DNA from: Candidatus Omnitrophota bacterium
GTDB taxonomy: Bacteria > Omnitrophota > Omnitrophia > Omnitrophales > JACQLI01
Direction: 5' to 3'
DNA: 64,000 bases
NCBI GenBank assembly: GCA_016179745.1
Contig: JACPCP010000008.1
Span: forward strand, 34,103 to 98,102
The notes beneath the pieces are model-generated. The model was not told where the DNA came from, made no database searches, and was given only the letters and a program-made list of their open reading frames with translations. The translations under genes were made by a program, and so were the position numbers. Below, one piece after another: positions 39,496 to 63,486 of this stretch (the first letter of the stretch is position 1; every line of letters begins with the position of its first letter).

Positions 39496-40392
39496 TCAAT
39501 TCAAGCCTAACTCGTTGGGGTGCCTGTAGTTAACGAGGCGGGCCGTGACCGAACCCAGAACGGGGACCTTCACGGTCATTTTAAGAGGAATGCGGCGTGA
39601 GTCGAGGGAGAGCCACCCCCGGATCTTTCCCCGCTTCACAAAGATCCCCTGAAACTGGATTTCGGGCTCCACCTCGACCGCTTCAAATTCCGGAAAGCCC
39701 TTTAATTGGACTTTCGTCTCCCTCAAAACCTTTACCCGAAGACTCCAATTTTTTTCGTCGGCGTTGACGGGAATAGAAATTTCCGTCCCGGGCTGAATCT
39801 CCTGCAGGCGGAACCAGAAACCGCACGAAAGCTGGTCCTGAACGTCCGGCGGAATTCTCATTTCCTTCCGGGAACCATTTTTGCGGGAGTAATAAGCGGC
39901 GGTGTGATTCACCTGATCGTATTCCATCACCTCGTCCGCCCGGTAACGGCCCTCCCGCAGGATTTTTTCATAACGGAGCGAGTGCAGCCTCTCGACATCA
40001 ATATAACTGTGGTGGGTGTCCCGCACCTTATAAATCCAGTCGATGATCCGAGCGGAACGAACCTGAATTTCAACGTGGTAGGCGTCCCGGTCACGCACCC
40101 TGACGATCTCCTTCACCTCGGCCTCTCCCCGGCCGACTTCGATCCCGAGCAGGCGGACGGAATAAACCAGTTTTTCCCCGACAAATAATTTTTGGGGAGG
40201 CGTTTCCTCGGCGGAAGCGTTTGGAGCGGCGAGAAGAAGGCAAAAAAAGAGGAAGCTAGCAGGCTGTTTGATAAATTCGTACCCCGTTTTGACCCCCTCT
40301 CCCTCCCCTCTCCCCCTGTGGGGGAGAGGGTTAAGGGTGAGGGGAAGACTAGGTACGAATTTGTCAAACAAGGTACTAGCGGCCGTTGACAC
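39496..40392 (-). CDS. DUF3108-like exported protein; N-terminal region interrupted by a palindromic element
   Basis: Beta-rich protein (LVYSVRLLGIEVGRGEAEVKE...) resembling DUF3108. The signal-peptide h-region ASFLFFCLLLAAPNASA begins only at residue ~44, because residues ~9-41 are encoded by the repeat at 40268..40367. The start (ATG 40392) is uncertain. Confidence 0.65.
   Translation of the reverse strand: MSTAASTLFDKFVPSLPLTLNPLPHRGRGEGEGVKTGYEFIKQPASFLFFCLLLAAPNASAEETPPQKLFVGEKLVYSVRLLGIEVGRGEAEVKEIVRVRDRDAYHVEIQVRSARIIDWIYKVRDTHHSYIDVERLHSLRYEKILREGRYRADEVMEYDQVNHTAAYYSRKNGSRKEMRIPPDVQDQLSCGFWFRLQEIQPGTEISIPVNADEKNWSLRVKVLRETKVQLKGFPEFEAVEVEPEIQFQGIFVKRGKIRGWLSLDSRRIPLKMTVKVPVLGSVTARLVNYRHPNELGLN
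40268..40367. repeat. About 100-bp nested palindromic element, copy 1
   Basis: Outer arms TTGATAAATTCGTACC (40268..40283) and GGTACGAATTTGTCAA (40352..40367). Middle arms CCCCTCTCCC and GGGTGAGGGG. Inner 11-bp stem CCCTCTCCCCC-TGT-GGGGGAGAGGG (40306..40330). Confidence 0.9.
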
Positions 40393-41491
40393 AATTTTTC
40401 CAAAAATTTTTCCGGTCCAGAAATACCTTCACGGCCTCGGGAGGAAGCTCCGTCAGGCATTCCCGGTCCACGCAGGCCGAATTGTAGCGAAAATTCGAGT
40501 AGCACGGCCGGCACGGCAGGTCCCTTCTCATCACCGGGACGGCACGAGGATATGCTGGGAAAGGACCATAAACTTTGGGGTCGGCAGGACCAAAAAGGGC
40601 CACGAGCGGAACATGAAGGGCGTGCGCCAAGTGGACAAGGCCGCCGTCATTGGCAAGGAGGAGCCGGGCCCCCTCCAAAATCGCCGCCGCTACGCCGAGG
40701 GAAACTTCCCCGCAAAGATTGATGACTTTAAAGTCCGGCGGATTTCCCGAATCAGACGCCAAAGTCTGTTCCATTGCTTCGCCGAGACTCCGCTCTCCTT
40801 TGCTTCCCAGGATCACGACCGAGCCGAAATTGACCCGCTTCCGGAATTCCAAAAGGGCCTGGGCAAAATAACAGGCGGGCCAGCGCTTAAAATGGGCGTC
40901 TTTTCCCCAGGACTCCCCGCCGCCCGGTGCTACAGCCAAATAAGATTCATCGGCAGGCCGATGAATCTCCCACGCCCGCTGCCGGTCTTCCTCGGAAACG
41001 TAAAACTCAAGAAAGGGCTCTTCGATCTCAAGACCCACGAGCCGCCCGAGCTCGGCGTAGAATTCGACGACCGAGCGGCCCTCAAATCCCCTCGGCAGAG
41101 AAATGGATTGGGTCAAAAACGTTCCCCGGTGTTTGAAATTAAAACCGATCCTTCTTGGGATCCCAAGAAAGACGCCGCTGTAAAAAGCGGTCTCCCGCTG
41201 GAGCGACAAATCGATCAAAAGGTCGTAGCGGCCTCTGAGTTTTTTCCACCAGAAAAAAATTTCCCTGAGGAGCTCCCTCCTTCCGAGCGAGTGCCACCGG
41301 TCCTTGTCGAGGGTGAAGATTTGGCCGGCGTGAGGGTTATTCCGAAAAATGGCCTCCGTCCGGGAACCGAGCAGAAGATCGACGGACTCGACACTCGGAA
41401 GGGTCCGGAGCGCCCGGAGGAGCGGCGTCGTAAAAAGGGCATCGCCCAGGCCGTAGGGCTGAACGATCAAAACTCGACGGATGGAATTCAT
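40376..41491 (-). CDS. Glycosyltransferase family 9 (heptosyltransferase-like), copy 1
   Basis: 371 aa. RVLIVQPYGLGDALFTTPLLRALR, and the C-terminal LLANDGGLVHLAHALHVPLVALFGP plus a Cys-rich tail. Confidence 0.88.
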   Translation of the reverse strand: MNSIRRVLIVQPYGLGDALFTTPLLRALRTLPSVESVDLLLGSRTEAIFRNNPHAGQIFTLDKDRWHSLGRRELLREIFFWWKKLRGRYDLLIDLSLQRETAFYSGVFLGIPRRIGFNFKHRGTFLTQSISLPRGFEGRSVVEFYAELGRLVGLEIEEPFLEFYVSEEDRQRAWEIHRPADESYLAVAPGGGESWGKDAHFKRWPACYFAQALLEFRKRVNFGSVVILGSKGERSLGEAMEQTLASDSGNPPDFKVINLCGEVSLGVAAAILEGARLLLANDGGLVHLAHALHVPLVALFGPADPKVYGPFPAYPRAVPVMRRDLPCRPCYSNFRYNSACVDRECLTELPPEAVKVFLDRKNFWKNCVNGR

Positions 41492-42518
41492 GCCAAAAAT
41501 TTCACGGCCTTTTTAAAAACATCGTCCACCGAGACCACGTCCAGACACAAAAAATTGATCCGACAGTTGTGGGCCAGACAAACGGGGCAGGCCACCTCTT
41601 TATGAATGACCCTCCCCTCCTCCCCCAAGGGCCCCCAGCGCCTCGGACTGAGGCCGGTCAGGTTCCTCCCGAAAATGGAGATCACCGGCGTGCCAACAGC
41701 CCGAGCCAAATGAACCGGCCCGGAATCGTTTGAAATGAGGAGCCGGGCGCCCTTGAGGAGCCAGCCCAGCAAACCGATCGAAATTTTTCCGCTCAAGTCA
41801 ATACGACCGGAAACCCGAATTTTTCCTGCAGGCGGTCGGCGAGCCGGGCGAAACGCTCGGCGGGCCAGACCTTGGAGGGACAACTGGCGCTCGGGTTCAG
41901 GACCCCGTAAGACCTTGACCCCTCACCCCCACCCTCTCCCCCTCGGGGGGAGAGGGCAAAGGGTGAGGGGGACAAATTCCGAAGTAGAAATTCAAGGGAG
42001 ACACGGTCCCGCTCCTTTAACGGGAAATAGGTCCGGAGTTTTTCCGGCGGTTTGACGTTTAAAAATTTTAAAAGATCGAAGTTGTATTCGGATTCGTGCT
42101 TCAAGCCCTCCCCTTTGCGGTCTTCAATTGTGTGGGTAAGGGCCCACGCATTTTTCTTCCGGTAACCGATTCGGACCGGAATGCCGGCCAGCCAGCTCAC
42201 CCAATGCATCCGGTTCGTCGGGTGGAGGTGGACAACCGTATCAAATCGTTTTTCGGCCAGCCGGCGGGCAAAGCGAAAATTCCCGAACCCGCCCTTCTCG
42301 CCCCCCCGCTTGTCGTAAAGAATCACTTCATCAAGAAAGGGGTTCCCCTCCACGAGCTCCCGGTTTTCCAGAAACGTGAGGCATGCCAAATGGGCTTTCG
42401 GAAATCTGAGACGGAGCGCTTCAAAAACAGGGGTTGAGAGAAGGAGGTCGCCCATTCGGTCCGTGCGGGTGATCAAAATCCGGGAGGGATCCCGGGATTC
42501 AATCAATGCTGGATTCAT
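41488..42518 (-). pseudogene. Glycosyltransferase family 9, copy 2: split by internal deletion and frameshift, and carrying an in-frame palindromic element
   Basis: The N-terminal half is in ORF 41793..42743 (from ATG 42518: MNPALIESRDPSRILITRTDRMGDLLLSTPVFEALR...VWPAERFARLADRLQEKFGFPVVLT-stop). The C-terminal half is in another frame (ORF 41488..41883: IDLSGKISIGLLGWLLKGARLLISNDSGPVHLARAVGTPVISIFG). The ~20-27 aa that paralogs have between VVL-G and the L-x-G-K/E motif are missing. Confidence 0.75.
41902..41979. repeat. Palindromic element, copy 2 (78 bp) inside the GT9 copy-2 reading frame
   Basis: CCCCTCACCC (41919..41928) pairs with GGGTGAGGGG (41961..41970). The inner stem is CCCTCTCCCCC-TCG-GGGGGAGAGGG (41932..41956). 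Flanks ACCCCGT..GACC and GACAAATTC are shared with copy 1. Confidence 0.9.
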
Positions 42519-43437
42519 CAAGAAGCTCCCGGCAGACGGCGTAGACCTTTTCCGGAGCAAGGTCCCGGAGAGAATCGGAATCCGGATTCCGGACAATCCG
42601 CCAAATCTCGTTTTCTCTTCCATATTTTTCGGGCTCGGTCGGGCCGAAGACCGCCACCACGGGACGGCAAAGCTCGTAGCCCAGGTGCATGCAAGCGCTG
42701 TCGTTACTGAGGACGAGGGCTGCTTCCGAGACGAGCGCCGCAAGTTCCCTCAGGGTCAACTCACCGGCCAGACTGACCACACGCCGGGGGTCCACCCCGG
42801 AAATTTTTTCGGCAAGCGGCGCCTCCCTGGAATCTCCCACGGCCGCAAAATTGAAGGAAGAGGTCTCCGCCAGGCCCTTGACGACCTCGGCAAAATTTTC
42901 GACCGGCCACCTCTTGGCCTCGCTCCCGGCGCCGGGCGCCACCACCACGCACGGCACCGAGGGCAAGAAACCTTTCGCTTTGAGTTTTTCAGAAAGGGCC
43001 GCTTCCTCCTCTTTCGAGAAAAAATCAAACTTCACGCTGCCGCCCGGCTTGAGATTCATCATCGGTAAGATCTCCAGATGACGGTCCCGGGCACGCTTCG
43101 AACGGTAATGCCGGAAAATGGGGCTCCGGCGCTCGGCCCGGACGAAAAAGGGCAGGGCGGAATTCCGCAAATCCACGGCCCACTCGTAAAATTCCTCTCG
43201 AAGGACCCGGACCAATCTGAGTTTGTGGGCGAGACCCGCCTGCTTGTCATAGACGAGGAGACGGTCGATCAAACGGCTTTTCTCCAAAAGCGGCGCCGCC
43301 CGGGGTCCCGCCACCACCGTGAGCCGGGCCCAGGGAAAAATCGAACGTAGGGAGGCAATGACCGGCGTCGTCAGAATGACGTCGCCGATATTGCTCAGCG
43401 TGACAAGGAGGATTGAGATTCTTTCCGGGGTCGCCAT
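42499..43437 (-). CDS. Glycosyltransferase family 9 (heptosyltransferase-like), copy 3
   Basis: 312 aa. ISILLVTLSNIGDVILTTPVIASLR, APGAGSEAKRWPVENF and LVLSNDSACMHLG. Confidence 0.88.
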   Translation of the reverse strand: MATPERISILLVTLSNIGDVILTTPVIASLRSIFPWARLTVVAGPRAAPLLEKSRLIDRLLVYDKQAGLAHKLRLVRVLREEFYEWAVDLRNSALPFFVRAERRSPIFRHYRSKRARDRHLEILPMMNLKPGGSVKFDFFSKEEEAALSEKLKAKGFLPSVPCVVVAPGAGSEAKRWPVENFAEVVKGLAETSSFNFAAVGDSREAPLAEKISGVDPRRVVSLAGELTLRELAALVSEAALVLSNDSACMHLGYELCRPVVAVFGPTEPEKYGRENEIWRIVRNPDSDSLRDLAPEKVYAVCRELLDESSID

Positions 43438-44453
43438 AACTCTTCGCTTTGAATTTTTTTAAAAACTTCTTCGGGGGTCATCCGTTCCATCCACCCCCCT
43501 GCCGGAAGGCTCTTCCCCTTCCAGGGGATTGAGTATCCTTCCGGGACAAATTGAATCACGATCTTTTTCCCCGTGCCCCGGGGCCCGGTCAAACGGGGGC
43601 AGGTCGGGCCAAAGAGCGCCACGACCGGGGTCCCCACGCCGGAAGCGATGTGGAGCGGGCCGGAGTCGCTCGAAACCACAAACCGGGCCTTTTGGTAAAG
43701 CGCCCCCAGCACTTTAAGTGACGTGATTCCACAAATAGAGAGCGGTTTTGAGAAGCGGGAATTCCGCAGAATTTCTTCGGCAATTCCCTCGTCACGGCCG
43801 GAACCGGTCAAGACCATCGGGAGTGAAAAATTCTGAGTGATCAGGTCAGCCAACACCGCAAAGTGAGTCGCCGGCCAGCGCTTCGGCTCCCAATTCGCTC
43901 CGATGTGAAAGACCGCAAAAGGTTTTTCCGCCAATCCCTTTGAGTGGAGAAGATTCAAAGCTTCAGCGTTGTGTTCGGGAGAATAGAAAAATTGATACTC
44001 CGCCCCGAATTTCACCCGGAGGCCGGCCCACTTCAAAAGATAAAGGAAGTAATCCACCTGATGCAAAGGCTTCGAAGGGGTCTCCACCGCACGGGTCAAC
44101 ACCCGCCGGCGTTTCGGTGTCGCAAAACCCACTCGCTCTGGAATTCCCCCGAGGGCCGCCAGGAAGGCCCGGGTGAAGGAACGATGAAAAAGGAAGACCC
44201 GGTCGAATTTCTCCCGCCGGAGCCAGGCAATGAATCGAAGCTTTGCAAAGAGGGACCGTTCCCCCTCCCGTTCATCGAATTCCCGCACTTCGTCAAGGAA
44301 GGGCACGGCCTCCAGAATTTCCCGGCAGCGTCCCGGCGCCAGGGCCGTGATCCGGGCCCCGGGAAAATTTTCCCGGAGGGCCTGGAGGGCCGGCACTTCA
44401 AACAGGACGTCCCCCAGCCAATTTTTGGTGAAGACAAGAATTTTCATGCTCAA
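43395..44453 (-). CDS. Glycosyltransferase family 9 (heptosyltransferase-like), copy 4
   Basis: 352 aa. KILVFTKNWLGDVLFEVPALQALR, HIGANWEPKRWPATHF and VVSSDSGPLHIASGVGTPVVALFGPT. Confidence 0.88.
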   Translation of the reverse strand: MSMKILVFTKNWLGDVLFEVPALQALRENFPGARITALAPGRCREILEAVPFLDEVREFDEREGERSLFAKLRFIAWLRREKFDRVFLFHRSFTRAFLAALGGIPERVGFATPKRRRVLTRAVETPSKPLHQVDYFLYLLKWAGLRVKFGAEYQFFYSPEHNAEALNLLHSKGLAEKPFAVFHIGANWEPKRWPATHFAVLADLITQNFSLPMVLTGSGRDEGIAEEILRNSRFSKPLSICGITSLKVLGALYQKARFVVSSDSGPLHIASGVGTPVVALFGPTCPRLTGPRGTGKKIVIQFVPEGYSIPWKGKSLPAGGWMERMTPEEVFKKIQSEELWRPRKESQSSLSR

Positions 44454-60889: not shown

Positions 60890-61544
60890 TAGAAGCTTCG
60901 GCCCTCTCCGCCATCGATGGCCACGCAGGTTCCGTTGACGAAGCTTGCCTGTTCAGACGAGAGGAAGACAATGACCTGGGCCACCTCTTCAGGAGTCCCC
61001 AGCCGTCCCAGCGGCAAAGTGGATTGAACCATTTTTTCGAAGCCGGACGGATCTTTCCCTTGGCCATGCTATACCAGGGCCGGCCACCGCCTTCCCGGCC
61101 ATAGAGAGAGGCAACGGTCACAACACGGCCCCAGTGCTGTTTCCGCATCCAGGGCAGGGCCTGTTTCGTAAACCGGAGGGCGGCCGTCACGTTTTTATGA
61201 TAAACGTCCTTCCACACTTCTTCCGGGGTTTCTTCAACGGAATCACTCCCCCAGCGGCCCCCTCCCCCCACATTGTTCACAAGAATGTGGAGGGTCCCCC
61301 ACAAACGGATCACTTCTTTCATCACCCGTTCAATGTCGCCGGCAAGAAGGGCGTCCGCCGAAACCCCGACCGCCTCGACGTCATGGGCCTGGATATCCCG
61401 CACGGCCTGGTTGAGCCGGTCCTCTTTTCTTGCCGTGAGGGCCACGTGGCAGCCCTCCCGGGCCAGGGCGTGTGCGGTCGCTAGCCCGATCCCGTGACTC
61501 CCGCCCGTCACCAGAGCGTATTTACCCTTGATTCCCAAATCCAT
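60889..61544 (-). pseudogene. Short-chain dehydrogenase/reductase with internal deletion and frameshift
   Basis: Frame A: YALVTGGSHGIGLATA...NNVGGG...through the catalytic YSMAK (near nt 61060), then nonsense. The canonical SDR C-terminus KDPSGFEKMVQSTLPLGRLGTPEEVAQVIVFLSSEQASFVNGTCVAIDGGEGRSF-stop is in another frame and ends in TAATG, overlapping the GT2 start. About 30 aa between YxxxK and the PG..T region are absent. Confidence 0.7.
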
Positions 61545-62594: not shown

Positions 62595-63486
62595 AAAAAA
62601 CTCCCCGGTGTAAATCTTCGGATGGCGGGAAGGGTGCGGCCTGGGCGTTCCGGAGACTCTTTTCGAGATGGCGGTTGATTTTCTCCTCCTCCTCGGCGAG
62701 CTCCGCTTCGCTCCAGCCCTGACTCAAAAGCCTTTTTCGCTGCAGGGCAATCGTGTCCCGTTTGAACCATTCCTCGAACTCTTCCTTCGAACGGTAGCCG
62801 AGATCAAAGTCCTCTTGGATCCCAATGTGATCGAGATACCGGTAACACTTTAAATGAAGAAACGAGGGCCGCCCCTCAGACCCGATGGCCTCCACGGCCT
62901 GCCGGACCAGGCGGTAAAGGACTTCGACATCCGTTGAATCAGATTGGAAGGTGGAACATTCAAAGTTCCGCACAACCTCCGTAATGGACTTGAAGCCCTG
63001 CCGGACATCCTGTTTGGTATGAATCGCCAATCCGTTGTCTTCGCACACAAACAAAACCGGAAGCTTCATGACCGAAGCGGCGTTCAAACTTTCCCAAAAA
63101 ACACCCTCCTCCAGCGCACCGTCGCCAAAAAAGGCGCATGCGATGCGGCCATTCCCCTTCCTTTTATTTGCAAAGGCCGCCCCGACCGCCAACGGAATGG
63201 AGCTGGCCACCACGGCCGAGGTGCACAGGAGGCCCTTGTCGGGGGCGGCCAAATGCATCGAACCCGCCCTTCCCGAAGCAGAGCCCGTGACCAGGGCGTG
63301 ACACACCGCGGTGGCCGTGGCCTCCTGCCCCATCGACATGTGCATGGGAGTCTTCATCTGGTCTTCGGGATAATGCCGGATGATCAGGCGCTCGGCCTGC
63401 CGGATCAGGTATAACTTTCGATACAAATCAAGACCCGGCCTATTTTCTGTTTTGTTTTTCAAAGTCTCCGTAACTGATTTTTTCAC
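62581..63486 (-). CDS. TPP-dependent E1 component, alpha subunit (shortened: lacks the conserved segment between GQEA and GSMH)
   Basis: 301 aa. MSMGQEATATAVCHALV-TGSASGRAGSMHL...FFGDGALEEGVFWESLNAASVMKLPVLFVCEDNGLAIHT. Only 18 residues separate GQEA from GSMH, versus about 50 in canonical E1 alpha (compared from my memory of PDHA1). Confidence 0.75.
   Translation of the reverse strand: MKKSVTETLKNKTENRPGLDLYRKLYLIRQAERLIIRHYPEDQMKTPMHMSMGQEATATAVCHALVTGSASGRAGSMHLAAPDKGLLCTSAVVASSIPLAVGAAFANKRKGNGRIACAFFGDGALEEGVFWESLNAASVMKLPVLFVCEDNGLAIHTKQDVRQGFKSITEVVRNFECSTFQSDSTDVEVLYRLVRQAVEAIGSEGRPSFLHLKCYRYLDHIGIQEDFDLGYRSKEEFEEWFKRDTIALQRKRLLSQGWSEAELAEEEEKINRHLEKSLRNAQAAPFPPSEDLHRGVFYETH

Follow-up and report, generated by a model that had tools for sequence, protein, structure and literature searches.

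Rickettsia palindromic elements (RPEs; Ogata et al. 2000, 2002, in the form in which PMC10969869 and PMC3733652 summarise them) are palindromes of ~100-150 bp that insert in frame in unrelated coding genes, where they add a stretch of peptide at structurally permissive positions and the gene still seems to function. REPs are short palindromes found mostly just 3' of ORFs, some sharing the TAG stop of the ORF (PMC3733652). A minority are intragenic, notably in DNA replication and repair genes, and the RAYT-associated GTAG- and CGTC-tagged REPs have been described in this position (Di Nocera et al. 2013, PMC3733652); such insertions were argued to be neutral where they affect an N-terminus or a modular protein (PMC3733652). 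Bacterial MITEs (Correia/NEMIS, ERIC, RUP, the Coxiella QMITEs; PMC10969869) measure less than 300 bp, have terminal inverted repeats and a short target duplication, encode no transposase, fold into long RNA hairpins and occasionally fuse in frame with a host ORF.

A fourth element, the BoxC/PIT/TM(ECO) motif, is a G/C-rich intrastrand triplex motif (Holder et al., Nucleic Acids Res 2015, PMC4666352, which cites the earlier work of Bachellier et al. and Hoyne/Maher). Its E. coli copies are described as “always intergenic” and “not associated with mobile elements”. The motif has been linked with local genomic instability, it has neither promoter nor terminator activity in E. coli, and in vivo footprinting revealed no stable triplex (PMC4666352).

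The window analysed here is a stretch of 64,000 nt from an Omnitrophota bacterium. One palindrome (copy 1) lies in frame in a DUF3108 gene, and a second copy of its core (copy 2) in a glycosyltransferase gene. The explanation that we consider probable is that copy 1 is a lineage-specific in-frame insert, read through and tolerated, and that copy 2 came via a recombination tract. What is new is the clean in-frame example; the class of tolerated selfish DNA and the triplex motif itself are already known. The locus provides an unusually clean pair of filled and empty sites for a motif whose spread has been puzzling since the 1990s. The motif was reported never to be tied to mobile DNA; here copy 1 is bounded by inverted arms and a duplicated target, while the other copy travelled inside a recombination tract.

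A 120-nt insert in the DUF3108 gene

The features around copy 1 are as follows.

39496..40392, minus strand: DUF3108 gene, 298 aa from GTG 40392 (Pfam PF11306, E = 2e-35, residues 77-286)
40376..41491, minus strand: upstream family-9 glycosyltransferase gene (heptosyltransferase-like), overlapping the DUF3108 start by its final 17 nt
40376..40380, minus strand: GCTAG direct repeat, left copy, holding the TAG stop of the upstream glycosyltransferase (40376-40378); the right copy is 40256-40260
40256..40375, minus strand: inserted block including one GCTAG copy, 120 nt = 40 codons TLFDKFVPSLPLTLNPLPHRGRGEGEGVKTGYEFIKQPAS, missing from the relatives L001 and L002
40345..40380, unstranded: left outer arm on the coding strand (inverted repeat I1), best conserved at 40352-40367
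40294..40344, unstranded: G/C-rich core, an 11-bp hairpin plus a third homopurine/homopyrimidine block on each side
40255..40290, unstranded: right outer arm (inverted repeat I1), best conserved at 40268-40283, encoding ...GYEFIKQPAS
40210..40254, minus strand: hydrophobic core and putative A-S-A cleavage motif FLFFCLLLAAPNASA, then EE; unchanged, and conserved in the homologs P0002 and P0003

An initial annotation had described a three-tier palindrome at 40268-40367, and all three tiers were found there. The inner stem (40306-40316 / 40320-40330) is 11 bp long and 100% complementary around a 3-nt loop (TGT). The middle tier, CCCCTCTCCC (40294-40303) and GGGTGAGGGG (40335-40344), is complementary at 9 of 10 positions, and the outer arms (40268-40283 / 40352-40367) are 16 nt with a single mismatch, a G-U pair in RNA. 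The palindrome nevertheless exceeds this span: arms of 36 nt (40255-40290 / 40345-40380) are 78% complementary. These arms, A/T-rich, imperfect and about 28-36 nt long, enclose a core (40294-40344) which forms a triplex-type motif readable from either strand and carries G-quadruplex motifs on both strands; hairpin and G-quadruplex are computed to be competing folds. The predicted RNA structure of the palindrome has a free energy of -83.4 kcal/mol versus -43.9 +/- 4.1 for shuffled sequences (z = -9.64; none of 200 shuffles folds as well), and the DNA fold gives z = -8.9. A scan of the whole window with Rfam gathering thresholds matched no family, and the element was not called by an intrinsic terminator scan. 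A run of seven Ts starts 8 nt past the stem and is already there in the empty sites.

In the DNA alignment the empty sites have a single GCTAGC (L001) or GCTAAG (L002), while GCTAG is present twice in the window, i.e. there is a target-site duplication with a single-copy empty site. The length of this duplication is ambiguous (2, 4, 5 or 6 bp) because the left side reads GCTAGT and the right side GCTAGC, and GCTAGC is itself palindromic. The insert begins directly past the TAG stop of the upstream gene and falls in codon 7 of the DUF3108 gene. Judged from these filled and empty sites, the alignments show 40256-40375 as a lineage-specific 120-bp insertion at GCTAG(C) after the upstream stop. 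Its size had been put at ~33 codons; the empty sites revise this to 120 nt, i.e. 40 codons, and assign to the insert the KQPAS residues first taken as original signal peptide. The possibility that copy 1 arrived by recombination, like copy 2, was considered and rejected: its flanks are closest to L001 on both sides (86-96% identity to the empty-site relative), with no mosaic.

The ORF continues because the block adds a whole number of codons, exactly 40, with no stop in the frame where it is inserted; by six-frame translation 4 of its 6 frames are open, and the ORF list confirms that the DUF3108 frame stays open across the palindrome. The DUF3108 proteins of the relatives with an empty site, P0003 and P0002 (90% and 88% identical), lack the extra residues (MPTAASV-LFFCLLL and MAAKA-LFFCLLL respectively). 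More generally, the number of residues before the VGEKL anchor is 70 here versus a median of 38 across 120 homologs. A protein search with the 42-aa insert peptide returned no matches, missing even the gene's own database entry, P0001, and is therefore uninformative.

The start codon at 40392 is GTG and not ATG as first described. It aligns with the start in L001, where the 17-nt overlap with the glycosyltransferase gene is also seen, and this ancestral start lies ahead of the insert. From the end of the insert to the hydrophobic core there is no canonical start (ATG, GTG or TTG), so the frame must run through the insert. Thus the proposal that the insertion preserved the ORF, as RPEs do, is supported on the two points that could have overturned it: the orthologs lack the extra residues, and the true start is not downstream. 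The annotated NCBI start is TTG 40371, inside the left arm of the insert, giving P0001 (291 aa). Exact look-ups of this protein and of the truncated 241-aa glycosyltransferase found neither on record. The locus shows that the motif can reside within genes. Gene callers and annotators differ over the start of such genes and may mishandle them, and signal-peptide and domain predictions are affected.

Copy 1 resembles RPEs in being a frame-preserving palindrome (120 nt, 40 open codons). The resemblance is one of behaviour alone and no sequence relationship is expected; membership is not claimed because the host is an Omnitrophota. Hosts and base composition differ, only two copies are present in the 64 kb, and RPE families are defined by a conserved peptide whereas the reading frame here differs between copies (PLTLNPLPHRGRGEGEG versus SPSPFALSPRGGEGGGEG). 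Its position past a TAG stop recalls REPs, but neither GTAG/CTAC nor CGTC/GACG tags occur within the 126 nt of 40255-40380, and the core is of the homopurine/homopyrimidine triplex type, not a generic REP stem. With MITEs it shares terminal inverted repeats (the 36-nt arms, whose best 16 nt have one mismatch), the target duplication, a size below 300 bp, the lack of an encoded transposase, the long RNA hairpin and the in-frame fusion with a host ORF. It differs in that the outermost 5 nt at its two ends mismatch, that it has no known parent IS, and that no further unit with these termini turned up. The inverted arms and the 5-6-bp target duplication suggest, less firmly than the insertion itself, that copy 1 may have arrived by MITE-like transposition; since one full-length armed copy was found, the MITE label depends on this one pair of filled and empty sites.

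Neither the rest of the window nor viral contigs (0 hits) yielded the arms a second time, and JGI metagenomes gave no two-armed unit. In the metagenomes, a scan for arm plus core gave 14 hits, 11 of them at chance level (3-6 of 18 extra matches); L130, L135 and L140 alone share one arm (12/18 and 10/18 extra matches).

The triplex-type core and copy 2

Sequence and block order show the ~50-nt core to be a two-sided variant of the published BoxC/PIT/TM intrastrand-triplex motif. The three-block architecture is the same and the sequences are nearly equal: CCCTCGCCCC-TTT-GGGGAGAGGG-TTA-GGGTGAGGGG in E. coli versus CCCTCTCCCCC-TGT-GGGGGAGAGGG-TTAA-GGGTGAGGGG on the plus strand of the window. The strict published pattern (CCCTCNCCC-N3-6-GGGNGAGGG-N3-GGGNGAGGG) has 0 matches in the window. 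It fails solely because the stem is longer (11-12 bp), so that the published spacing is missed by one base, and because the second loops measure 2-4 nt. With spacers relaxed to N3-7 and N2-4, 4 matches appear where 0 are expected by chance, namely the two loci in the window, each read on both strands. In all four readings the geometry is that of the purine motif: the C block pairs at 9/9 positions with the first G block in Watson-Crick fashion, and the second G block mirrors the first at 8-9/9.

As with TM(ECO), the motif is scattered over very distant bacteria and accompanied by local indels or rearrangement, seen here in the recombination tract and in the difference between 1 and 3 units. 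Disparities nevertheless appear. The hairpin is flanked by a third block to its left and another to its right, which makes the motif two-sided; copy 1 adds A/T-rich inverted arms of 28-36 nt and a target duplication; the host belongs to the Omnitrophota, outside the survey of PMC4666352. Moreover, the copies are not intergenic, copy 1 lying in the DUF3108 ORF and copy 2 in a 365-aa glycosyltransferase ORF.

41910..41972, minus strand: copy 2, 21 codons SPSPFALSPRGGEGGGEGSRS in place of 7 codons in the linker of a heptosyltransferase II-like gene; core motif at 41919-41971
41906..42075, minus strand: approximate recombination tract with copy 2, ~170 nt, delimited by sliding-window identity
41794..41799, unstranded: site of a 62-nt deletion present in this contig only, which falsely splits the copy 2 host into ORFs 41793-42743 and 41488-41883

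Copy 2 lies 1.6 kb from copy 1 in the same LPS-core gene cluster; the two have only the ~53-nt G/C core in common, the flanks of copy 2 matching the arms weakly. The initial annotation had seen a repeat family in this pair. For the core, which is already known and occurs very widely, that holds; for the complete 120-nt unit it does not yet, a single copy having been found. The split ORFs had suggested that copy 2 sits in a pseudogene, a view we rejected because the gene is an intact 365-aa ORF in L149 and the window contig has three internal deletions. Copy 2, which is also present in L149 and L150, is thus in frame in an intact gene for a heptosyltransferase II-like protein, at the linker between the two domains. 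The protein has 14 aa more than its orthologs, and the linker measures 63 residues versus 49 in 52 of 60 homologs.

The tract 41906-42075 is 91-92% identical to L153 (GCA_964373135.1) and only 54-59% to L152, the closest relative outside it. The mosaic identity profile shows that copy 2 was gained or exchanged within this ~170-nt homologous-recombination tract, common to another Omnitrophota lineage; it does not represent an independent transposition. The array at this site has 1 hairpin unit here versus 3 in the other lineage, and in one relative the equivalent LPS-core cluster contains 7 hairpins within 5.9 kb.

Readings of the in-frame insert

If copy 1 is read through and tolerated, translation would start at the ancestral GTG, or else at the TTG that follows seven codons later, and proceed through the hairpin. 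By hydropathy and charge counts, the 40 Pro/Gly/charged residues would then affect only the n-region of the Sec signal peptide, which would grow from 3 to 44 residues while the hydrophobic core behind it stays as it was. Cleavage would be expected after A-S-A. The mature protein would be unaffected because the extra residues would be removed with the signal peptide. For this reason the element is best viewed as tolerated selfish or structure-prone DNA at a permissive site and not as a functional domain; the open frame is weak evidence of function since the element has no stop in 4 of its 6 frames in any case. The locus bears on how short structure-prone repeats give proteins disordered segments.

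The palindrome could also be an intercistronic or 5'-UTR hairpin, with DUF3108 initiating downstream at a non-canonical codon such as ATC 40271 (M-KQPASFLFF...), and the hairpin acting as a post-transcriptional regulator or, REP-like, as a 3'-end stabiliser of the glycosyltransferase message. It does start right past the upstream stop, a typical REP position (PMC3733652). The NCBI annotation and the longest ORF differ over the start, and ATC-AAA-CAG... gives a textbook signal peptide with a GGGG run 9 nt upstream of the ATC. We judge both this initiation and this role improbable. From the insert to the hydrophobic core there is no ATG, GTG or TTG; the ancestral start is conserved with its upstream context intact; ATC is a very poor initiator codon, and the ATC and the GGGG run are both buried in the stem. 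The missing terminator call and the lack of promoter or terminator activity of the published motif in E. coli (PMC4666352) also speak against a regulatory hairpin. That the insertion silenced or crippled DUF3108, either because a hairpin 13 nt from the start blocks initiation or because an n-region of 44 residues abolishes export, seems unlikely, as does its corollary that the ORF is open only since the event is recent and 4 of 6 element frames are stop-free. The stem near the initiation region is indeed very stable, the open frame discriminates little, and the insertion cannot be dated because all six samples are one set of runs. But the remaining 251 codons are intact, with Pfam DUF3108 aligned at 207 of 209 profile positions, and translational coupling with the overlapping upstream gene would be expected to open the stem. 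In addition, in-frame palindromes of this motif and of other families persist in the essential genes ligA and uvrB (PMC3733652), which indicates that such hairpins are translatable.

It is likewise improbable that the element is maintained because it is itself functional, with a triplex, G-quadruplex or cruciform in the DNA promoting recombination and variation in the LPS-core cluster or tuning its expression. The two copies 1.6 kb apart in one such cluster, the recombination tract with 1-3 units between lineages, the relative with 7 hairpins in the same cluster, the G-quadruplex motifs and mirror-symmetric purine blocks on both strands and the published link to genomic instability (PMC4666352) would all fit. 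A structure-prone repeat would however be just as likely to cause instability passively, the closest relatives thrive without either copy, and footprinting saw no stable triplex in vivo (PMC4666352). An assembly or binning artefact, i.e. a chimeric join at the repeat, is effectively refuted. The contig does have assembly defects (62, 127 and 97 nt are missing relative to independent assemblies), but the identical 298-aa ORF is present in six per-run assemblies, which are 100% identical (one 99.96%) over 2.7-5 kb around copy 1, and L149 and L150 carry copy 2 likewise.

In-frame copies in other phyla

The range of the motif is extended here to the Omnitrophota and many other phyla, which makes it all the more puzzling that a single sequence should be conserved so broadly. 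A crude test for ORFs spanning the motif across phyla was discarded: most of the long open frames had no Pfam match and are probably spurious in GC-rich DNA. In-frame copies were counted only with domains on either side of the motif.

We tentatively propose, as a possibility that we hold short of even odds, that BoxC/PIT/TM is a pan-bacterial “protein-coding palindrome” of ~35-55 nt residing in permissive loops, linkers and leader peptides in at least 5 phyla, and not merely an enterobacterial or cyanobacterial intergenic curiosity. It would be tolerated because, with its homopurine/homopyrimidine composition, 4 of 6 frames are free of stops and the encoded peptides are flexible and Pro/Gly-rich, and it appears to spread through precise MITE-like insertion and short homologous-recombination tracts. 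If this is true, its housekeeping-gene hosts include ligA, uvrB, mfd, hrpB, vgrG, an ABC exporter, the heptosyltransferases and DUF3108; the first six are those in which in-frame copies were found in other phyla. In ligA the motif occupies the same loop in two phyla. Further in-frame copies are found in the linker of a glycosyltransferase (L126) and in P0123.

The insert in the DUF3108 gene

Reading of the minus strand (40100-40520) and an inverted-repeat finder both return the nested palindrome that the initial annotation had placed in the DUF3108 gene. The outer arms of 16 nt with one mismatch were found as described, but the real arms are longer: 36 nt, 78% complementary, at 40255-40290 and 40345-40380. 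The features are:

39496-40392, minus strand: DUF3108 gene, GTG start, 298 aa (Pfam E = 2e-35, residues 77-286)
40376-41491, minus strand: upstream family-9 glycosyltransferase ORF, TAG stop at 40376-40378
40306-40316 / 40320-40330: copy 1, inner stem, 11 bp, perfect, loop of 3 nt
CCCCTCTCCC / GGGTGAGGGG: copy 1, second tier
40268-40283 / 40352-40367: copy 1, outer arms, 16 nt, one mismatch
41910-41972: copy 2, 21 codons (SPSPFALSPRGGEGGGEGSRS) in a heptosyltransferase II-like gene, in place of 7 codons of its linker

Copy 1 ranks first among the local inverted repeats of the 64-kb window. Folded as RNA, its 136-nt region reaches -83.4 kcal/mol vs -43.9 +/- 4.1 for 200 dinucleotide shuffles (z = -9.64; 0/200 as good); for DNA folding z is -8.9. 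No Rfam family was matched anywhere in the window.

The window protein has 70 residues ahead of the conserved VGEKL anchor vs a median of 38 in 120 homologs. The initial annotation had proposed an alignment with orthologs: the two closest DUF3108 relatives lack the block at both the protein and the DNA level. Their N-termini read MPTAASV-LFFCLLL (P0003, 90% identical) and MAAKA-LFFCLLL (P0002, 88%), and their loci, L001 and L002, match the window base for base either side of one gap. The empty site of L001 is ...GCCGCTAGCGTTCTCTTTTTTTGC... and the filled site of the window is ...GCCGCTAGT[ACCTTGTTTGAC...CAGCCTGCTAGC]TTCCTCTTTTTTTGC... Thus the claimed in-frame insertion stands, the extra block being absent from the closest relatives and the frame kept, but it measures 120 nt or 40 codons (40256-40375, one GCTAG copy included) and not about 33. 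The start codon does lie upstream of the element, although it is GTG and not ATG: its counterpart in the alignment is the GTG at which L001 starts, the sequence 5' of it is conserved, and no ATG, GTG or TTG separates the insert from the hydrophobic core in the window. In the NCBI record of this gene (P0001, on a 122.5-kb contig) the start is TTG 40371. Given the single-gap alignment, the conserved GTG start and the lack of a later start codon, the ancestral N-terminus was M(S/P)TAAS-(V/F)LFFCLLL... Residues KQPAS, initially assigned to the original signal peptide, are encoded by the right arm of the element instead. Identity to L001 is 86-96% on both sides of copy 1, whose flanks are therefore not mosaic.

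Copy 1 is no artefact: six separate per-run assemblies (SRR12113431, SRR12113419, SRR12113433, SRR12113426, SRR12113421 and SRR12113390) encode exactly the 298-aa product, and their contigs are 100% identical to the window (one 99.96%) over 2.7-5 kb across copy 1. Comparison with per-run assemblies L141, L142 and L149 reveals three stretches missing from the window contig, all intragenic: 127 nt at 61057/61058, 97 nt at 63291/63292 and 62 nt at ~41794-41799. They are ordinary coding sequence, and false frameshifts appear in the short-chain dehydrogenase, E1 dehydrogenase and glycosyltransferase genes; P0156 (241 aa), the NCBI annotation of the frameshifted glycosyltransferase, is truncated by the contig gap. 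Two independent per-run assemblies, L144 and L145, end at the same base (window 41754), ~40 nt from the 62-nt deletion and ~150 nt from copy 2, a possible sign of strain variation or of a tangle in the assembly graph.

The insert is open in four of the six frames and, being 120 nt long, never causes a frameshift, so that an intact ORF is to be expected and is unremarkable. The stretch ahead of the hydrophobic core grows from 3 to 44 residues (5 K/R, 4 D/E), while FLFFCLLLAAPNASA and the A-S-A motif are unchanged. Judging from the sequence, cleavage of the signal peptide would also take off the extra residues, provided that export of the precursor persists, and at residues 77-286 the folded DUF3108 domain is probably unaffected. 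Copy 1 occupies a typical landing place of such repeats, just past a stop codon: the glycosyltransferase TAG lies 14 nt past the DUF3108 start, and copy 1 is intragenic for the sole reason that the two genes overlap (by 17 nt). Ribosomes terminating at this TAG would open the outer stem, and translation might then re-initiate more readily at the DUF3108 GTG 14 nt upstream.

The host is an uncultured Candidatus Omnitrophica bacterium, and the syntenic loci form an LPS-core cluster (GT4/GT9 fusion, four GT9 genes, DUF3108, PfkB kinase, PyrG, KdsA, KdsD, lipid-A acyltransferase, LptC). Four successive family-9 glycosyltransferase paralogs lie ahead of DUF3108 (40376-44453, minus strand), with overlaps of 17-43 nt between neighbours; these tight overlaps, with almost no intergenic space, may account for the repeats of the cluster falling inside ORFs. 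Long N-terminal extensions made of differing repeat-like peptides (SESAAGGRRISEILRPLRGLRMT; GTVPLRGSLRQ twice; SLRGGEADEAISKSGLLRPSGARNDV; RRGVIPE...SSFWIPAFAGMT) are present in DUF3108 orthologs of other Omnitrophota (P0014, P0022, P0038, P0111, P0116). The glycosyltransferase/DUF3108 junction seems to be a collecting point for several unrelated palindromic repeat families; alternatively, these extensions are ORFs prolonged through repeats by gene callers.

The core and the BoxC/PIT/TM motif

The core of copy 1 and copy 2 is the BoxC, PIT or "TM" G/C-rich intrastrand-triplex motif of Holder et al. 2015 (PMC4666352). The strict published pattern, CCCTCNCCC-N3-6-GGGNGAGGG-N3-GGGNGAGGG, has no match in the window because the stem of the window copies is 11-12 bp. 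With spacers loosened by one base the pattern matches both loci, each on both strands, and nothing else in the window (0 expected by chance). The C block pairs with the first G block at 9/9 positions, and mirror symmetry between the two G blocks holds at 8-9/9. In both window copies the third block is found on both sides, so that a triplex motif can be read on either strand; a G-quadruplex pattern is also present on both strands.

Genomes were scanned, one per species, for CCCTCTCCCC-N3-7-GGGGAGAGGG; the matches listed, which are no random sample, include Alpha-, Beta- and Gammaproteobacteria, Planctomycetota, Verrucomicrobiota, Acidobacteriota, Rokubacteria, Peribacteria, Atribacterota, Omnitrophota and others. 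In most of the matches listed, CCCCTCACCC or GGGTGAGGGG flanks the hairpin on one side.

The TM motif has 3610 copies in 262 proteobacterial genomes, and cyanobacteria have further ones; the E. coli copies are "always intergenic" and "not associated" with transposons, phages or plasmids (PMC4666352). It has no promoter or terminator activity, its triplex is stable in vitro and undetectable in vivo, and it is linked to local instability (PMC4666352). Earlier descriptions thus confined this motif to intergenic DNA and took it to be immobile; the window copies are intragenic. In-frame palindromic inserts as such are established: RPEs, intragenic ERIC or MITEs (PMC10969869). What is new is the motif family: a triplex-type BoxC/PIT/TM core inside genes, in copy 1 with MITE-like arms and a target duplication and in copy 2 within a recombination tract, in a phylum outside earlier surveys. 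We found no description of this in the searchable literature, the coverage of which is incomplete.

Arms and recombination tract

The arms of copy 1 are A/T-richer (...TGTTTGA[C/T]AAATTCGTACC...) and, by comparison with the empty sites of L001 and L002, do not derive from the target site. With the duplicated GCTAG, they give the copy 1 unit the anatomy of a MITE. No second full copy with arms is present in the window, and no arm was found in viral contigs. A metagenome scan for arm plus core gave 14 matches, 11/14 at chance level, and no second full copy. We thus infer the transposition of copy 1 from one event, since no second full copy was found. Three loci of one project (L130, L135, L140) show 12/18 and 10/18 further arm positions beside a triplex-type core (P ~5e-4 and 1e-2 before multiple testing), without the second arm. 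At least two loci of that project carry left-arm-like sequence (TTGTTCAACAAATTCGTACC) directly 5' of a triplex-type core with no matching right arm (left-arm-like loci L130:760-900, L135:1440-1600 and L140:1590-1750). The L135 copy is intergenic and adjoins a prepilin-like gene.

Copy 2 lies directly 5' of a conserved YxVLNPSASCPSK motif. We rejected a split of its host gene: L149, an independent assembly of the same organism, encodes an intact 365-aa protein including the insert, and the split in the window is therefore a contig defect. The linker from EYNFD to LNPSASCPSK has 49 residues in 52/60 scoreable homologs, 63 in the window gene and 92, with identical boundaries, in P0123, a glycosyltransferase encoded at L153 in MAG GCA_964373135.1. 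By sliding-window DNA identity, the host gene is 88-98% identical throughout to L152 (P0121, no insert) except for ~130 nt upstream of the insert; this stretch is 54-59% identical to L152 and 91-92% to L153. By this mosaic profile, copy 2 lies in a short recombination tract that the window has in common with the L153 lineage. L153 and the window have the same outer blocks, with three hairpin units in between in L153 and one in the window; PMC4666352 ties expansion and contraction of this kind to the TM motif.

In-frame copies in other genomes

A third Omnitrophota genome (L126:5310-5365) carries the same two-sided core, again in frame, in the linker between the domains of the paralogous glycosyltransferase immediately upstream of DUF3108 (...ILRR-PLTLPSPQRGEGGGEGRNIS-RFVAVAPGGG...; peptide PLTLPSPQRGEGGGEG). 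MAG GCA_964373135.1 is very motif-rich, with 7 hairpins in 5.9 kb (L153:1-5905). The P0123 ORF (440 aa) holds 5/7 of them, with motif-derived peptides at the N-terminus, the linker and the C-terminus. The DUF3108 N-terminus of this MAG (L003:575-700) has another motif at the same gene junction as in the window; its hairpin loop contains an ATG, a possible start of DUF3108.

Among the matches listed, 102 hairpins across phyla were evaluated: 33% of them are flanked on both sides by 60 or more open codons vs 69% of random positions, so that most copies of the motif are intergenic. Nevertheless, at least 8 hairpins of these matches, spread over 7 genuine genes, lie between Pfam domains:

Genes with hairpins between Pfam domains
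L035, 3173-6157, minus strand: NAD-dependent DNA ligase, Planctomycetota MAG
L112, 128-2365, plus strand: NAD-dependent DNA ligase, same loop as L035, Sphingomonas MAG
L005: mfd, MAG
L081: uvrB, Verrucomicrobiota MAG
L087: hrpB, Verrucomicrobiia MAG
L079: vgrG, Stutzerimonas stutzeri cultured isolate
L009: ABC exporter, Verrucomicrobia MAG

Sphingomonas LigA has 38 extra residues relative to 2owo_A, between E. coli positions 159 and 162, and UvrB (L081) has 63 relative to 2fdc_A, between positions 402 and 405; in both the rest aligns. This cross-phylum pattern of in-frame copies is the part most worth pursuing.

In L035 and L112, from unrelated genomes, the motif is in frame at the same adenylation-domain loop of the ligase, directly after the conserved RTIxxxPLxL, which the CCCCTCACCCT block itself encodes in L035 as (L)PLTL. 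The shared site suggests either a common permissive site or microhomology-guided capture. The in-frame inserts in mfd, ABC exporter, vgrG, uvrB and hrpB show a bias to DNA repair genes, which echoes the report of Di Nocera et al. on other REP families.
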